Origin: a virus
Virus record (IMG/VR): IMGVR_UViG_3300017971_000272
Span: 1 to 64,000 of that record
Length of the DNA stretch: 64,000 nucleotides
Strand: one strand, 5' to 3'
In this document: positions 2,217 to 24,251 of the stretch, piece after piece
Position numbering within the stretch: position 1 is the first letter of the stretch
Layout of the letters: each line of letters opens with the position of its first letter
Translations under genes and position numbers: made by a program
The notes under the pieces: model-generated
The model's input: only the letters and a program-made list of their open reading frames with translations
Told to the model about the DNA's origin: nothing
The model's database searches: none

Positions 2217-2455
2217 TCTGCTAATAAATTAGAATCTAAGTTTAACTACATGACTGCACTAAAAGGTAATTGGAATGGCATTGAATAAGTTTTTAGTCCT
2301 TAAATATAACACATATGAAGTCCTCCTTTTTCACTGGATTAAAATGTGAATTATGTTTTATACTACTAAAAAAGAAAATTTATTAAATAGATGCGTAGAT
2401 ACTTTCCAGGTTGCTTTTAGAGATTCTATTTTATTATTATTTAAAGGAGTCTTTT

Positions 2456-2644
2456 ATGTGGGATTTGGATAACTGGTACACTGGTGATTATAATATCTAT
2501 CAAAGTGATAGTAAGGATAATAAAAAAGAACAAAATGTTAATTGTTGGTGTGGTACTAAAGCAGTTAAAAAATGTAAACGATGTGATCAACCCCTTTGTA
2601 ATAATTACTTTTGTAAAATTGAACATAATTCTCAAAAACATTAA
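2456..2644 (+). CDS. Small Zn-finger-like protein
   Basis: AAGGAG SD before ATG 2456. CxC..CxxC..C..C..H pattern. Confidence 0.6.
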   Translation: MWDLDNWYTGDYNIYQSDSKDNKKEQNVNCWCGTKAVKKCKRCDQPLCNNYFCKIEHNSQKH

Positions 2645-2654
2645 GGAGCTATTG

Positions 2655-2939
2655 ATGAAAAAACAACCTATTCGATACTATTATGTCACATTTAGTTATA
2701 TTGCTTATCCTATTGGAAAAAGGGAAGATAAGCAATTACATATAACTGATATGGTATTACTTGATACATCTGAAGAAGAATTACAAAGGGGATTAGCAAG
2801 AATACATATAGCTCTCAAAGATAAACTAATGGAAATAGATCAATCTATACCAGCAAGTTATATAGTTAGAACTAAAAAACAGATACTAAGCCATATTGAA
2901 GATGAGAAAAGACTTTTAAAAAATATTAAAAGGAAATAA
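2655..2939 (+). CDS. Hypothetical protein
   Basis: AAGGAG SD about 2643-2648 favours a start near 2655 rather than 2484. Confidence 0.55.
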   Translation: MKKQPIRYYYVTFSYIAYPIGKREDKQLHITDMVLLDTSEEELQRGLARIHIALKDKLMEIDQSIPASYIVRTKKQILSHIEDEKRLLKNIKRK

Positions 2940-3022: not shown

Positions 3023-3376
3023 ATGGCAGATCCAAATAAAAAATTAAGTGTTAAATCTTACTTTGCTATGATCATTACTCTTGCTACAATCTGCAGTGGA
3101 ATATTTTTTATTGAAGATCGCTATGCTAAGGCTGAAGAAACCAACAAAAGTATATCTATGCTAAAGGCAGAAACCACTCAAACATTTACTCAGATAAGAA
3201 AAGATCTAAGAAAAGATGCTTTACAAGCAAGAAAACAAATCCTCTTAAACAGAAAATACCTTCTTAGATCTTACAAAAGAAAATATCCCAATGATCCTGA
3301 AATCGATAGGGATATTAAAGAAGTTAAAGAAGAGATCAGTATTGTAAATGAACTACTTGATAGAGAATCTTTATAA
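3023..3376 (+). CDS. Single-TM coiled-coil protein
   Basis: AGGAGG SD, one hydrophobic helix. Its stop abuts the stop of the convergent tail gene. Confidence 0.7.
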   Translation: MADPNKKLSVKSYFAMIITLATICSGIFFIEDRYAKAEETNKSISMLKAETTQTFTQIRKDLRKDALQARKQILLNRKYLLRSYKRKYPNDPEIDRDIKEVKEEISIVNELLDRESL

Positions 3377-4045: not shown

Positions 4046-5625
4046 TATGTCCAACTCCTTTCTACACTCACTATCTGTGTTACTTGTGGCAAAGATGCCT
4101 CTATGCTTACAGATGTTATCAAGCCTCTCCATACTTCAAATAAATCCTCTACTTGAACTATGTCTGTTGGAAACAATAATTTTGGTCTTACTGCTGATGA
4201 TTGAAGTGGCAATGGTAATCTCATTGTATAATTAGTTTTATTGTATCCATCTTGATCAAGGATGTTTCTGCCTTTTTCAGCATTGACTTGAGCTGTTGTT
4301 AATAAAGTTAACGATACACTTGGAGCTGGAATTGTCCAAGGTTCTCCATCTCTTTTTACATGGGTTATGTATCCAGCTTCTCTACCAGTGACAAACACAT
4401 TATCATATTTAGATTTTGGACTCCATTCAATATCTTGTCCAAATATAACTCCAGCAAGTATGTATTCATCTGGAGTTATGCTATCAAAGTTCTTTGGAGA
4501 TGTGGGATATCTATAATTAAATATCATTCTTTTTTCATATGTTTCAGATAATGGAAATCCACCTTTGGTCATCATAACTCCACCACTTGCTTTGACCACC
4601 TCACTACAGATATCTATAATGGTTTTATCCTTAACACTATAAATATCCCCTGGAATATTCCAATCAACAACATTCCAATCCTGGAACCATCCCTCAGCAT
4701 CTAATTCATAACCGGTTATTTGTTGAGCATTGATGCCAAGAGGATAAGAAGTGGAATCCCATGTTTTTGTTTGTAGTATAGCATATGGCTTTGCAAGGGA
4801 ACAGCTTGGGGATCTTCCTTGGATATTGTATGTTCCATTACCGTACTCGTAATTCTCTGATATTTGCTCTACCCAAAAATGCCAGTAGTATTCATTTATA
4901 TTCAATCTAACTTCTATAGGACCTTGACCTGTAGGTCTCGCGTATTCTGCATCAACTCTTGTATTACAAATAGCAGAAAAATTCCATGTCCAGGAATCTA
5001 TATCTGTACTAACACTTGCTGATAATATATTAATCTTTTGCCCATCACTTACTCTAATTAAAGTTACATCATTCTTTATCATGATAACACTCCCTGTTGC
5101 TATCCATGCGCTTTCACATCCTTGTGGAGTAGGACCTATAATTACTTTATCTTCATCATATTCAGCTTGGCAAATAACATCTATTACATTTCCTATGTTC
5201 CATCCACTTTCACAAAGTACATCAACAAATAAACCCCTACTCCAAGCACTTTGACAATTAACATCAACAAATAAGACCCTACTCCAAGCAGATTCACATT
5301 GCTTATCTATTGGAGTAGCTATATCCCATCCACTTTCACATAAAACATCGATTGATAAAGCTATCTCCCATGCTGATTCACATAATAAATCAACAGTAAG
5401 GGCTTTTGACCATGCACTGTTACATTGCTTATCTATTGGAATAGATCGTTCCCATGCTGATTCACATTGCTTATCTATTGGAATAGATCGTTCCCATGCT
5501 GATTCACATTGAACATCTTTAGCAACTGTTTTAGCCCAAGCACTTTCACAATCTGTGTCCAAAGATACTGAAGTACTCCAAGAACAAGAACAAGGCACAA
5601 TCATATTTGGATTTAATAAACTCAT
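4045..5625 (-). CDS. Tail tip/hub protein with N-terminal 15-aa CESAW repeats
   Basis: Position after the tape measure and large tail gene; about 11 CxSxW repeats. Confidence 0.7.
   Translation of the reverse strand: MSLLNPNMIVPCSCSWSTSVSLDTDCESAWAKTVAKDVQCESAWERSIPIDKQCESAWERSIPIDKQCNSAWSKALTVDLLCESAWEIALSIDVLCESGWDIATPIDKQCESAWSRVLFVDVNCQSAWSRGLFVDVLCESGWNIGNVIDVICQAEYDEDKVIIGPTPQGCESAWIATGSVIMIKNDVTLIRVSDGQKINILSASVSTDIDSWTWNFSAICNTRVDAEYARPTGQGPIEVRLNINEYYWHFWVEQISENYEYGNGTYNIQGRSPSCSLAKPYAILQTKTWDSTSYPLGINAQQITGYELDAEGWFQDWNVVDWNIPGDIYSVKDKTIIDICSEVVKASGGVMMTKGGFPLSETYEKRMIFNYRYPTSPKNFDSITPDEYILAGVIFGQDIEWSPKSKYDNVFVTGREAGYITHVKRDGEPWTIPAPSVSLTLLTTAQVNAEKGRNILDQDGYNKTNYTMRLPLPLQSSAVRPKLLFPTDIVQVEDLFEVWRGLITSVSIEASLPQVTQIVSVERSWT
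5095..5595 (-). repeat. 45-nt period coding tandem repeat (CESAWxxxxxxDxx)
   Basis: Near-identical adjacent units at about 5423-5510, degenerate units on both sides. Confidence 0.85.
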
Positions 5626-8600
5626 TAAGAAGCTACATCCCCTCTTATTTCAAATACAGAGCTATCATCTGTAGTATCTGATGCCCTTGCATTTATCACT
5701 CTTGCTATCCACAAAGGAGCACCTGCCTCAATGGTATTAAATCGTATAATATTTCCTACCTGCCATCCTATCCCCCATCCGGCATTGCTTAATGTGAAAT
5801 AAACAGCACCTGTATTTGGGTTAGTAATAGCTATATTAGCTCCACCATCTCCAACTGTTATTCCTGCCTGAACTACTCCTAAATGCTCATTATTCACAGA
5901 AACAACAAAGGTATCTGTATCAATAACAGATGTAATTTCTATAGCCCATTTACCATCCTCAGCACCATGATTAGTTACTATTACTGGATATGTTACATGG
6001 TCATAGGTTCCATCTGCTGGATTGCCTATCTGAGTATCACTATATGTTGATCCATCCCATGTTTGTTGTGTGAACCATGTATCATATGATGCCTGTAAAT
6101 CTCCTTTAACAATAGCGTTGCTAATTGTTGTATTAGCTGCTGAAAAAGAATTACTTAATTGATTAGCTATGATTATTCTATCATGATAAACAGATTGGAT
6201 AATAACTGCCTCTACATTTACTCCATCATTTAAAATAGCTAAATCATCTTTTTTGAAAGCAGGCACCATTCCATCTGGAGGAAATTTACCAGTATTTATT
6301 TGATCATAATCTATGGGATAAGTATATCCCCCATAAATATAATCTACTAAAAAGGAATCAACAGCTACAGAATCATTAAAAGATATTATAGCATATCCAT
6401 TTTCCTTATCAAGAAAACCATTACCATCACCAGTTAAAACACCACCTACTTCTTCTATTTGTATATCTGATAAATCAGTAGCTTTTTTTGCTTTTGCTAA
6501 AAAAGTATTTAAAACCAGATTATCTCCGGCAAGAACCACAGAAAAGTTTTTAGTTGTTCGAGGTATGGAAAAATATTCTGCAATAATGGATGAGATAACA
6601 TCTGTTCCATCTGTGCTTGTTAAATTGCCAGTTCCCAAAGTATAATTGAAATCTCCTGCTACATCCGGAAAACCTGACATATCTGTTACATTACTTGCTA
6701 CAAATGATCCATTAATGCCATAAGTGCCTGAAAAAGAAAATATACCATCCGGAGAATAAGCCCCACTTCTTACTCCAAGATCTATATTTGAATAGAATGG
6801 GCTAAATACTTGCTCAACAAGCCAAGTTTCACCATTATCATTTGTGTAAAGCACTATACCTACTTTAGCTGTAGTGGGATAATTATTTGCGCTCTTAACA
6901 GGCACTACAAAAGTTTTTTGACCGTTATTAAAAACAGGACCAAAATTTGCTGTAGTTACTGAACCCCAATCAGGTATACTATCTATAATTTTGGATAATA
7001 GAGTGCTCCAGGTTTTCCCACCATCAGTTGATCTTAAAACTTCATTATTAGTTGTGGTAAGCATCCATGTGTTATTAGATTTATTACAAGATACTCCTGT
7101 TATATCGCCTGTTATGCCTGTATTCTTAGCTGTGTAGGTTTGTCCATCAGAACTGTAATAAAGTATGGATGTGTTAAGAGTCCATACTATAATTACATCA
7201 TCTCCATTTTCATCAGTCCCCTCAGCAGCACCTCCAAGAGTATATCCGAATATTTGAGCACTTACAGTCCAGTTACTATAATCATCACTGTACATAACCT
7301 TATTTTCTCTTGAAACAAGAACTATCCTTCCATTTACTTGAGCAGCTCCTCTCACATCTGCCCATTCTCCTGCTACCCATCCCGATGCATTTTTCAAATC
7401 AATATGGGACCATACTCCAGCAGTACCATCTCTAACAATCACTCCCCATTCTTCTGTTGTTGATTGTGATGTGCCAAATACAAATTGTTTATCATTAACT
7501 GAATCATAGTACATGCCTCTTATCTGCTCTACCCAATAACCAAAACTCTGTCCATCTATCTGATCCCCTTTTTGAAGCACAACAACATAATCATATCCAT
7601 TACTACCTGAGTACACTCTTGGGGCCTTAGTGTACTGTCCTGGAACCTGAGTATCAGGCACAAAAAAAGTATCTTTGTGATAATAAGTTTTATAAAGATT
7701 ATATGTTCTATTATCATAATTGCTCCCTTGATCATCTCCAGGACCTATTATTGTCCGTTTATCCCATTGTAATACACCATTGCCATTATCTATTACATTA
7801 TAAGGGCCTCCACTTGTTAATGATACTTTCAACAATATAGATCCAGGATTAATACTGGACATTCCAAAATCAAGAGGTATAGGTAAATTACCTGGATTCC
7901 CGCATGGAATATTTTCTTGTTCAGTAAATCCTACTTCACTTTGATATTCATATATCAAATGTGTTCCTATATCAGGAGCATTATCTAAATTGATGGATAC
8001 CAAATCTGTATCAAGATCAATAGTACCTGTCCCATAACCATCAATAGTACCTGTTCCATCATCTTGCAGTTGTTCCCATTTATTATTCACTCTTACTTTT
8101 ATAACAAGAGTACCTACTTTTATAGGACCATATTCCATTATTTTATTATAATTAGTTTGTCCCTCAGAAACTAACAAACTATCACTATACCAAGGCTGTA
8201 AAATCCCATTAACATATTTATTCAGTTTATCTATCCAATAATTATCTATTACACTTGCTAATGGAAAAGGAGCATAGTCTTCAATCACAATATTATTTAA
8301 TATTGTAGGGATTAATCTTACCTTAGAGGTATCAACACGTAGTACAGTATCAAAAGGGGAAGCATCTTGTCCTAATTTAATATGACCATAACATTTCCAG
8401 CTTGGATTTATAGTAGTTTGATTTAAAGTTTTTCCAGCATCATGAGCATATTCTAATGTATCTGAAAAATAAATTGCCTTATAAATAATCCTATGTACTC
8501 TTCCTTCATTGTAAGTGATATCATCTATTATTGTCTCTACTTTATTGATCTGTCTAAATTCAGTTTTAACCCCATCAACAATAACAACTATATCTCCTAC

Positions 8601-21304: not shown

Positions 21305-21670
21305 TTATCTTAATTGACCTTGTTGTTTAGCAAGATCATTAATATAATTAGTTACTATTTTAGATTGAACAATAACTCTTACTCCACAACTTGGGCAATA
21401 ATGCATGTTGTGCATTATTGGTTGCTGACAATTCAAACATATAAAACAATGACCGGAAAAAGATATTGCATGTGGTGATATAATATGCTGATCAGTTAAT
21501 AACATAGAATTTTGATAACCTCCTACATTATTGTTATTCTGTTCAGGAACTATATCATGGATTGGACAAAGTGTATTTCTATACTCATCATTGCAATTAC
21601 ACAAATCATCCTCATGTGTATCAGAGTTATCCACTTTAGATTGATGTCGTTTTGGAGTTACTTTATCCAT
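21305..21670 (-). CDS. Zn-ribbon protein
   Basis: CxC..CPIH and CLNC..YCPSCG. Confidence 0.65.
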   Translation of the reverse strand: MDKVTPKRHQSKVDNSDTHEDDLCNCNDEYRNTLCPIHDIVPEQNNNNVGGYQNSMLLTDQHIISPHAISFSGHCFICLNCQQPIMHNMHYCPSCGVRVIVQSKIVTNYINDLAKQQGQLR

Positions 21671-21839: not shown

Positions 21840-23213
21840 TTACTCACTATTAACAGTTTCCTCAGAATCAGTTTCATCAGTTGTTGTATCTGCGACAACC
21901 GGAGGAGGTTCACATGGACCCTCAGTATCTCCATGAGCTAAGTGAATAGCAGCCTCTTCAGGGGATACAGTTATGGTTTCAGGTGTTCCAGAAGCATTAC
22001 AACATACATCTACAGTTTCCGGTTCACATGCTCCTAATGTATCACCATGAGAAACGTGAATATCTGCTACAGCAGGATCACATTGAATGGTTTCACCATT
22101 ACAGCATACTTCTACTTGTTCACAAGGACCCAAGGTATCACCATGATTATAATGTCCCGGTAAAGCGGAGCATGGAACTTCGAGAGTTTGTCCATTATGG
22201 CAAATCTCAATTTTTTCATCTCCGCCATTTCCTCCACCAGTATCATTATCTCCACAATTGTTAGTACAGTTAACAGTTACATTTACACCATCATCAGTAG
22301 AGCCTCCGTGACATCCGTGACGTCTACCGTTTCCGTTCCCATTATCGCCGTGATTATGGGAGTTTTGGGAACGTCCGCCGTTTCAAGGATGATGGGGATG
22401 ACAAGGACGACAACAGCCCGTAGTACATCCACAAGCTACCTGAGTTTTAAGAGCCGTCAACTCTGCATTAGCAGCATTCAATTGACGTTCAATGTTTCTA
22501 CTCTCAACAGCCTTGATTTCAGCAAGGATCTGTGATTTATCTTCACAAGCTTGACGTTCAACAGCAGCAAACTTCAAATTGTTTCCTGCTTCAAGAGCCA
22601 AGATTTGTTTTTGAGTTTCACAACAACATTCTTGATTTCTAAGCTGTGCCTCAAGATTAAGAACTTTATTGTCACAGCAGCAATCAGCAAGTTGTTGACG
22701 AATATCAGCATTATCACGCAAAGCATTAATTTGCTGTGCATCCAGTTTATCAGCAGTTCTCAATTCTGCACGAAATTGACCATCACGAAGATCAGTGAAT
22801 TGGCGATCTCTGGTAGCATTTTCAAAAGCTTGGAGAGTGCCAATATTTCCAGCTTGGATCATATCACGAGTACAGTCTGCTTGATTTTCAATCTGTTGTG
22901 CATTACGATTCAAGCGAACAGCATTAGCAGAAGGAGAAGCCCAAGGACCAAATCCTCCACCTCCCCAACCACCTCCCCAAGCACCTCCACCACCTCCATA
23001 ACCATAACCACCACGTCCATAACCTCCAGCAAGAAGCCCACCAACAGCAATTTCAGTTGCATTTAAACTTGAAGTATTATCCATTTGATTACCTCCCGAT
23101 TGATTATTATAATTCGAATTATTAGGATTATTAGGATTAGTATAAGCTTTTGGACTAATGGGAGGATTATTCATCCCATGTCCATGATTCATCTTATCAT
23201 TTGTAGTAGCCAT
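21840..23213 (-). CDS. Gly/Cys/His-rich coiled-coil protein with in-frame UGA (22383-22385) and three C-terminal HGDTxGxC repeats
   Basis: ORFs 22383..23213 and 21840..22133 share a frame and 22382-22134 is stop-free. Second start at 23084 has a GGGAGG SD. Readthrough itself is inferred. Confidence 0.6.
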
Positions 23214-23318: not shown

Positions 23319-23870
23319 TTATATCATGTTTTTAATGCTGGATATATAAGGAGTGGCTTGTGTAGCCAAATATGATTCTCCCAATTCTTCAATTAAACTA
23401 TCAACTTTATCAAAATACTCAAAATGACGTTGTTCATCCTTTAACAACTTTTCAAATATTTCAGCAGAAATAGAATCCATATTCTCTCTGCATGTTACTA
23501 AATATTCATTATAACTTTCTATGGCTTTCTTTTCTACTTCAGCATCAAACTCAAATATACAGCATGGTTTTTCATGTTTTTCTATTCTATCAAAATCATA
23601 AAAATCTGTTGGTTCACATAGTAGATTTTTAATTCTGTTAGCTATCATATCAGCGTGATGCATTTCCTCTATAGCTATTTCCTTAACTTGTTCAGCAAGT
23701 TTACTATATCCAATAAATTCTAATTGAGTATGATGTTTTAAATATTGATTAATGGAATATAATTCTTTACTACGTGCTAAATTTAAAACATGCACTACAG
23801 GATCTATCAAGCAGCTTTCCTCCCTGCCTTCTTCCTGATCTTCTATTTTTTCATTTTCCATATCATTCAT
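23319..23870 (-). CDS. bfr: Bacterioferritin / ferritin-like diiron protein
   Basis: E..SINQY..H, AIEEMHHA..IANRI..L, EKKAIESYN, LKDEQRH ferroxidase ligands, G.SYLA C-terminus. Confidence 0.85.
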   Translation of the reverse strand: MNDMENEKIEDQEEGREESCLIDPVVHVLNLARSKELYSINQYLKHHTQLEFIGYSKLAEQVKEIAIEEMHHADMIANRIKNLLCEPTDFYDFDRIEKHEKPCCIFEFDAEVEKKAIESYNEYLVTCRENMDSISAEIFEKLLKDEQRHFEYFDKVDSLIEELGESYLATQATPYISSIKNMI

Positions 23871-23894: not shown

Positions 23895-24251
23895 TCATCT
23901 CAACAAAGCACCCACAGCTACTTCAGTTGCTCCTATAGAAGCGCTCTCATCATATCCTGAATTATCATGAGTTCTATAATGATGATGGGTGTCATTATCT
24001 TCAAAAGCCTTTTCAAGTACAAAATTAAATGGATGATCCGCCATTTCCATAGCTGAATTCCAATTTAATATTTGCACCGCTCTTTCCATAATCTTTCTTT
24101 GTCCATCAAGAATATTCCATACATCTCTGTATGTAATATTTTCATGGGTACTTAAATGTTTAACATATTCTCTTGCCATATACTCCACATCATGATATCC
24201 AAGTTTTCTTGGATTCATTATCCATTCTTGTAAAACAGTATCACAGCTCAT
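23895..24251 (-). CDS. Hypothetical His-rich protein ending ATEVAVGALLR
   Basis: AAGGAG SD. C-terminal peptide shared with the 23213 protein. Confidence 0.7.
   Translation of the reverse strand: MSCDTVLQEWIMNPRKLGYHDVEYMAREYVKHLSTHENITYRDVWNILDGQRKIMERAVQILNWNSAMEMADHPFNFVLEKAFEDNDTHHHYRTHDNSGYDESASIGATEVAVGALLR

Follow-up and report, generated by a model that had tools for sequence, protein, structure and literature searches.

Programmed stop-codon readthrough is textbook knowledge for single-stranded RNA phages as well as for RNA viruses of plants and animals. Among the closest described systems is the coat/A1 gene of phage Q-beta (Qubevirus/Allolevivirus), where one gene with a UGA stop codon gives a major short protein and a minor form that is extended at its C-terminus by an extra domain; a few percent of the ribosomes read this UGA with tRNA-Trp, and no elaborate RNA signal is needed. 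In bacterial selenoprotein genes such as fdhF of E. coli an in-frame UGA is likewise conserved among homologs and followed by a continuing frame. There, the bacterial SECIS element is obligatory for selenocysteine (Sec) insertion, and Sec positions normally lie in conserved motifs for which Cys homologs exist. Stop-codon-recoded phages also read a stop codon as sense: they reassign TAG or TGA in late genes, exhibit many in-frame stops and usually carry suppressor tRNAs. For tailed dsDNA phages, frameshifting is the known way of adding C-terminal domains. Ig-like C-terminal domains are appended to structural proteins by programmed +1 or -1 frameshifting in T3, A2, A118 and PSA (Fraser et al. 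2006, reviewed in PMC5009743); for such domains the review describes in-frame decoding as a further route.

In the literature searched, no paper on programmed readthrough in a tailed dsDNA phage was found. The locus described here belongs to an IMG/VR phage record of 73.8 kb (32% GC, estimated completeness 88%); its first 64 kb, in which the locus is located, form the stretch of DNA referred to as the window. Terminase, portal, major head protein and major tail protein genes of the tailed-phage type are present in the record, and the gene of interest, ORF1, lies in a late operon between the head and tail genes, beside a ferritin-like gene, an endolysin and a holin. ORF1 ends with a TGA, behind which the frame stays open for 180 codons (22382..21843, minus strand) up to a TAA. 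This extension comprises a linker, three copies of a Cys-rich repeat of about 32-38 residues with the pattern [IV]C[HC]..G.T..V....A..H..HGDT.G.C, and an acidic tail (Table 1). The coordinates of the TGA and of the 180 same-frame codons with their three repeats, as given in an initial annotation of this DNA, were confirmed. The same is true for its statement that no in-frame ATG, GTG or TTG precedes the TTG of the ORF track: this TTG is the first such codon behind the TGA, none being found across 83 codons, and because it is situated inside repeat 1 the repeat region has no conventional start. Ahead of the domain only two ATT codons occur, at extension codons 58 and 60. At the stop-trinucleotide frequency of the window (0.077), a stop-free run of 83 codons has a chance of about 0.001 and one of 180 codons a chance of about 6e-7. 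The TGA is the assembled consensus at approximately 18x depth with no variant in Logan contigs from two run records, apparently a single data set and possibly the source of this DNA, so that the reads give no independent support for the TGA. Gene callers systematically miss or truncate extensions of this kind, and here the domain was annotated from the TTG inside repeat 1.

Table 1. Positions of the features discussed, in the window and, for the last four rows, in the respective related locus.
Feature	Position	Strand	Remarks
121-aa Cys-rich zinc-ribbon-like protein	21305..21670	(-)	downstream neighbour of ORF1
Acidic Thr/Glu/Asp tail and final TAA	21840..21911	(-)	TAA at 21842-21840
Domain repeat 3	21912..22025	(-)	..VCCNASGTPETITVSPEEAAIHLAHGDTEGPC
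Domain repeat 2	22026..22121	(-)	EQVEVCCNGETIQCDPAVADIHVSHGDTLGAC
Domain repeat 1	22122..22217	(-)	EKIEICHNGQTLEVPCSALPGHYNHGDTLGPC; contains the ORF-track TTG, 22133
Extension linker	22218..22382	(-)	55 codons, rich in Gly/Asn/His/Cys, stop-free, without ATG/GTG/TTG
Hairpin of the initial annotation	22334..22373	(-)	8-bp stem CGUUCCCA/UGGGAACG (22373-22366 with 22341-22334), 24-nt loop
In-frame TGA, proposed recoding site	22383..22385	(-)	context CAU CCU UGA AAC (Pro-UGA-A)
ORF1 (short form)	22386..23213 (with TGA: 22383..23213)	(-)	276 aa from first ATG; C-terminal end ..GCTTGCCRPCHPHHP
Probable true start ATG (M44)	23082..23084	(-)	GGAGG at 23096-23092, 7 nt upstream
Ferritin-like gene (PF00210)	23319-23870	(-)	own AAAGGAG and ATG
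118-aa gene	23895-24251	(-)	TGA 23897-23895, in frame with the ferritin-like gene 8 codons on
L008 domain gene, separate	4248-4535		clear ribosome-binding site and ATG
L014 domain gene, separate	3027-3317		clear ribosome-binding site and ATG
L025 domain gene	about 2491-2860		after collagen-like G-X-Y repeats; +1 frame; ATG 7 nt past the TGA of the family gene
L027 (IMGVR_UViG_3300017963_000436) heptamer C CCC CCU	2375-2381		in register, two codons before the TAG stop of the family ORF

The ORF1 protein, which would carry the extension, consists of an N-terminal peptide ..SSLNATEIAVGGLLAGG, a Gly-rich linker, a long helix with CCC motifs and a Cys/His/Pro tail, CRPCHPHHP. Its family comprises 260 representative clusters at 50% identity, and almost all members are 170-250 aa long and end where ORF1 ends. 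In the alignment, M44 of ORF1 is nearly invariant among 145 family members; several relatives begin exactly at its equivalent, and the proteins of loci L003 and L006 start with MGDSSLNATEIAVGS behind a ribosome-binding site of their own. Judged from these alignments and from the GGAGG 7 nt upstream of it, the ATG at M44 is probably the true start in place of the annotated 23213, which would result in a short form of 233 aa and a long form of 414 aa. In the AlphaFold2 model of the carrier (145 sequences), a single uninterrupted helix spans residues 94-260 (pLDDT >95); ahead of it lie a short helix, formed by the peptide ATEIAVGGLLA, and a Gly-rich disordered stretch. The long helix, with some 167 residues, probably assembles into a coiled coil and would then make a rod of around 25 nm. 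Family searches of both protein parts (Pfam, PHROGs, NCBIfam) gave nothing above cut-off, and neither a PDB sequence search nor Foldseek against PDB and BFVD returned a useful match. A tblastn search against 50,697 GenBank phages yielded nothing useful and a prophage/host search of genome contigs no match. Opposite ORF1, long antisense ORFs run from 22164 to 23066 on the plus strand, the longest comprising 300 codons when TGA is counted as sense. They were rejected as a gene and attributed to the biased composition of ORF1, the same effect being seen in a complete 61-kb relative (G001).

For comparison, 20 distinct loci of the family were collected as DNA from metagenome and IMG/VR contigs. 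In half of them an in-frame Cys-rich domain follows the family ORF, namely in the window, L003, L004, L005, L007, L011, L012, L016, L017 and L030, with L004 counted once (L028 and L029 are the identical gene from two samples). The protein identity among these ten loci is only 30-50%. Their junction stop is TGA in 10/10 cases, compared with one TGA, five TAA and four TAG among the ten loci that lack an in-frame domain; the one-sided Fisher test for 10/10 versus 1/10 gives p = 6e-5, and since the ten loci are not phylogenetically independent such p-values are to be read as upper-bound impressions. As background, 94 long ORFs of nine of these records remain when the family genes are set aside, and 13 of them (14%) terminate in TGA. 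The residues around the junction differ (HHP*NGG, PRP*NNG, PRV*PSD, HRG*EGG, SSS*TEP, HHH*GCS, CPS*NGG, HGG*VMW, HHG*SDP and GH*LTC), as do the flanking codons in every locus. Between the TGA and the domain lie linkers of 10-99 codons, all of them stop-free and devoid of a consistent ribosome-binding site and start; true gene starts in the same loci show both clearly. The base following UGA is U in none of the ten sites, and the Pro-UGA-A of the window is a weakly terminating kind of context in E. coli. Database searches revealed no sense-codon fusion of the family protein to the Cys-rich domain, which indicates selection to keep the stop, i.e. both forms. Longer proteins in the family are limited to P0081 and P0129, in which the extension is of another, low-complexity kind. 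The initial annotation had named a sense codon in all homologs, together with the lack of a conserved hairpin, as the finding that would speak against recoding; what the homologs unveiled is a TGA kept in ten loci.

Sequence conservation, the modelled fold and related bacterial repeats show the Cys-rich domain itself to be real and under selection. An alignment of 13 domain sequences exhibits invariant Cys, Gly, Gly and Cys columns. AlphaFold2 modelling of the homologous L017 domain (pLDDT 82) gave a confident fold in which the conserved Cys pair frames a beta-hairpin and a helix, so the model suggests a small disulfide-type fold of roughly 35 residues; Foldseek found no match for this fold in PDB or BFVD. 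Weakly related repeats (E 2e-10 to 4e-3) were detected in seven short bacterial proteins, most of which have a hydrophobic N-terminus. Furthermore, the domain is encoded in other arrangements within the family (Table 1). In L008 and L014 it forms a separate gene whose product has an additional N-terminal module, CCEIPVCLKF..EEFKE.M.ELFSE, absent from the in-frame versions. In L025 a TGA precedes an out-of-frame domain gene. In L027 the domain lies in the -1 frame, and a slip at the heptamer, a candidate site of programmed -1 frameshifting by sequence, would join ..CPP to SVGPDTVTICH... The domain of L010 (4576-5046) is likewise in the -1 frame, with a 67-nt overlap and no canonical slippery heptamer. 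The separate-gene and -1-frame versions indicate that rod protein and domain are functionally linked and that lineages differ in the route by which they are brought together. These varied routes match the pattern published for accessory domains, which phage proteins acquire by whichever kind of recoding suits (PMC5009743).

As the TGA and the in-frame domain are kept in ten diverged loci, some ribosomes most likely read through. We consider programmed (leaky) UGA readthrough, giving a major short and a minor long form, to be the probable explanation of the sequence pattern, and the recoding site to be well supported by it. We infer that readthrough occurs, and equally its efficiency and the inserted residue. 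According to this explanation, most ribosomes would stop at the UGA and release the short protein, and a minority would decode it with a near-cognate tRNA of the host and continue for 180 codons; in bacteria the near-cognate tRNA at UGA is normally tRNA-Trp, as for the A1 protein of Q-beta. Thereby the flexible linker and the three domain copies would be appended to the C-terminal end of the rod, and readthrough at a stop would result in a fixed short:long ratio from a single gene. Near-cognate decoding of a weak UGA is the simplest fit to the Pro-UGA-A context and to the lack of U after the stop. The rod may be a virion or cell-surface fibre that displays the domain; in such a fibre or stalk the short form would predominate, and at its tip a few subunits would bear an extracellular-type binding or metal-binding domain. 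The proposal of the initial annotation that an extended product is made alongside the short form is thus strongly supported by the ten diverged loci. The start at 23213 is probably to be corrected to 23084.

The phage uses the standard genetic code. Of the 114 crudely called genes of this genome 16 have TGA as their stop, as do about 29% of the genes of G001, which has a good coding density under table 11. No tRNA was detected in this record (88% complete) or in the complete G001, and a further relative, G002, carries tRNA-Thr only. Tandem backup stops behind TGA stops did not differ from those of TAA genes. Since no suppressor tRNA is present and TGA is an ordinary, frequent stop in G001, the recoding must be done by the normal machinery of the host. 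Apart from the ORF1 site, a single TGA joins two genes in frame only once, between the 118-aa gene and the ferritin-like gene. This junction would be a second possible readthrough fusion; it is probably a coincidence, since AAAGGAG and an ATG provide the ferritin-like gene with a start of its own.

The 8-bp stem, which was pointed out in the initial annotation as starting 10 nt past the UGA, is indeed present. Its folding energy hardly stands out from dinucleotide shuffles (z = -0.38, 71 nt) and lies at z = -1.9 relative to codon shuffles (60 nt), 3% of which fold equally well. For the 60 nt behind the UGA in nine loci, codon shuffles gave z-values of -1.9, -1.3, -0.8, -2.4, +0.2, -3.3, +1.9, 0.0 and -0.2, which together amount to a mild tendency to structure (combined z about -2.6). 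In L007, L012, L016 and L017 (+0.2, +1.9, 0.0 and -0.2, respectively) the fold is no better than that of the shuffles. A hairpin 10-13 nt past the UGA is found in about half of the loci (window, L003, L005, L011). RNAalifold found no consensus pair among the loci, and Rfam, SECIS included, yielded nothing at E <= 10 near the UGAs of the window and eight relatives. A stimulatory signal at the UGA that is shared among the loci was not found, and the hairpin of the window is at most a local, non-conserved stimulator.

Other readings of the junction have to be weighed against readthrough. The extension could be a second, separate product that initiates by itself at a non-canonical or Shine-Dalgarno-less start, or by termination-reinitiation, the UGA being an ordinary stop. 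The independent domain genes of L008, L014 and L025 fit this, and possible starts can be pointed out in several in-frame loci: AGGAAGG, 5 nt and ATG just ahead of the domain in L003, GGAG, 8 nt and ATT in the window, Shine-Dalgarno-like strings ahead of non-canonical codons in L011 and L012, and an ATG two codons past the TGA in L016. Independent genes, however, have no reason to lie in the same frame in 10/10 loci and behind TGA in 10/10, the window offers no ATG, GTG or TTG for 83 codons, and there would be no explanation for linkers that run stop-free for 46-99 codons ahead of the candidate starts. The truly separate versions, moreover, have strong ribosome-binding sites and the extra N-terminal module. 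Initiation at the ATT of KIEI, which the initial annotation had named, leaves both the 57 stop-free codons ahead of it and the joint frame and TGA pattern unaccounted for, and on balance we regard two separate products as unlikely, though with some chance; single members such as L003 may nevertheless initiate internally. Nor does a host with UGA as a sense codon or with strong suppression of it, so that the long form is the main or only product, agree with the data as a whole. Such a host could use code 4 or 25, a suppressor tRNA or a weak RF2, which would suit the 32% GC genome and the Gly-rich linker (as expected were UGA read as Gly); in addition, Trp stands exactly at the junction in P0009 (..PHPWHPAGNGNG..) and P0081 (..HHGGRWKCD; ..HHGGRWKCDSEP..). 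As both come from short AT-rich contigs, this Trp may stand for a genuine TGG or for a TGA to which a metagenome gene caller applied table 4. The ordinary use of TGA as a stop in this genome and in G001, the table 11 coding density and the lack of a phage suppressor tRNA speak against such a host, as does the fact that no other gene is interrupted by TGA, where recoded hosts would have frequent in-frame TGA; we therefore hold this reading to be very unlikely. A decaying gene or an assembly error, in which a nonsense mutation split a once continuous gene, would be conceivable for a single phage population whose two run records look like one data set. Yet the TGA recurs in ten diverged loci and, for L028/L029, in two samples, the extension domains keep all invariant residues, and the depth of about 18x (from the same apparently single data set) shows no variant, so that decay or error is, from the sequences compared, effectively refuted. 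Stop-hopping was rejected as well, since no matching take-off and landing codons were seen by eye.

One reading raised in the initial annotation was that the UGA may encode Sec. It would then be decoded by SelB and tRNA-Sec of the host via a downstream SECIS, and the gene would belong to a phage selenoprotein family. It would account for a conserved stop that is specifically UGA and for its Cys/His-rich surroundings; the hairpins 10-13 nt past the UGA in about half of the loci agree with it, as does the hairpin of L005, whose 7-nt loop is rich in G and lies at a distance resembling that of a SECIS. Organisms that use Sec are, furthermore, common in marine sediment and seawater, the habitats sampled. 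The SECIS is nevertheless obligatory, and in four of the nine loci the shuffles reach folds just as good. With neither a consensus pair by RNAalifold nor an Rfam SECIS match in the window or the eight relatives, the expected SECIS and covarying hairpin did not appear. Instead of a conserved redox motif, a variable linker of low complexity between domains surrounds the UGA, its flanks vary, database searches yielded no homolog with Cys at the UGA position, and the phages lack tRNA-Sec. What is left to this reading are lineage-specific SECIS hairpins too diverse to align, and we judge both this variant and Sec at the site in general to be highly improbable. If true, this would be the first family of selenoproteins in phages, and its Sec would lie within a metal-binding linker of Cys and His next to a ferritin-like gene; no paper on a phage selenoprotein was found in the literature searched.

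Leaky readthrough of the UGA would place the locus close to coat/A1 of Q-beta in its layout of one gene, a UGA stop and an extra C-terminal domain on a minor form. In contrast to Q-beta, a single-stranded RNA phage whose carrier is the capsid protein, the present case concerns a tailed dsDNA phage and a helical rod and is known from sequence alone. With the Ig-like domains it would share a promiscuous small domain that is appended to some copies by recoding at the 3' end of a gene, and related phages that use in-frame, shifted or separate routes. It differs from them in that the proposed route is stop readthrough and the domain a Cys-framed beta-hairpin plus helix; also, the phage proteins there are structural, and the carrier here may be so. 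Unlike fdhF-type genes, neither the hairpin nor a motif at the UGA is conserved, Cys homologs are missing, and the UGA separates domains instead of lying in an active site. Compared to stop-codon-recoded phages, there is one site per genome and no suppressor tRNA.

A UGA at a domain boundary is thus kept across deep divergence in a whole family (260 clusters at 50% identity), and together with the sister routes (-1 frame, separate gene) it makes a clean natural system for studying how a short:long ratio comes to be fixed and for what reason it is retained. Both the domain and the rod-like carrier are uncharacterised proteins, and since the domain is also present in bacterial proteins, a function found for it would reach beyond phages.

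Some observations were made on neighbouring genes. The 121-aa zinc-ribbon-like protein downstream of ORF1 gave no family match; its homologs are encoded directly downstream of the family gene in L005, L008, L011, L012, L014, L016 and L017. In the flank of L003, positions 5844-5969 and 6631-6699 (minus strand) gave sub-threshold Rfam group I intron matches of 25 and 34 bits (E 0.02 and 5e-5, respectively). Finally, the C-terminal end ..GATEVAVGALLR of the 118-aa protein resembles the stretch ..NATEIAVGGLLAGG right after M44 of ORF1, and the two may represent a shared docking, targeting or cleavage peptide.
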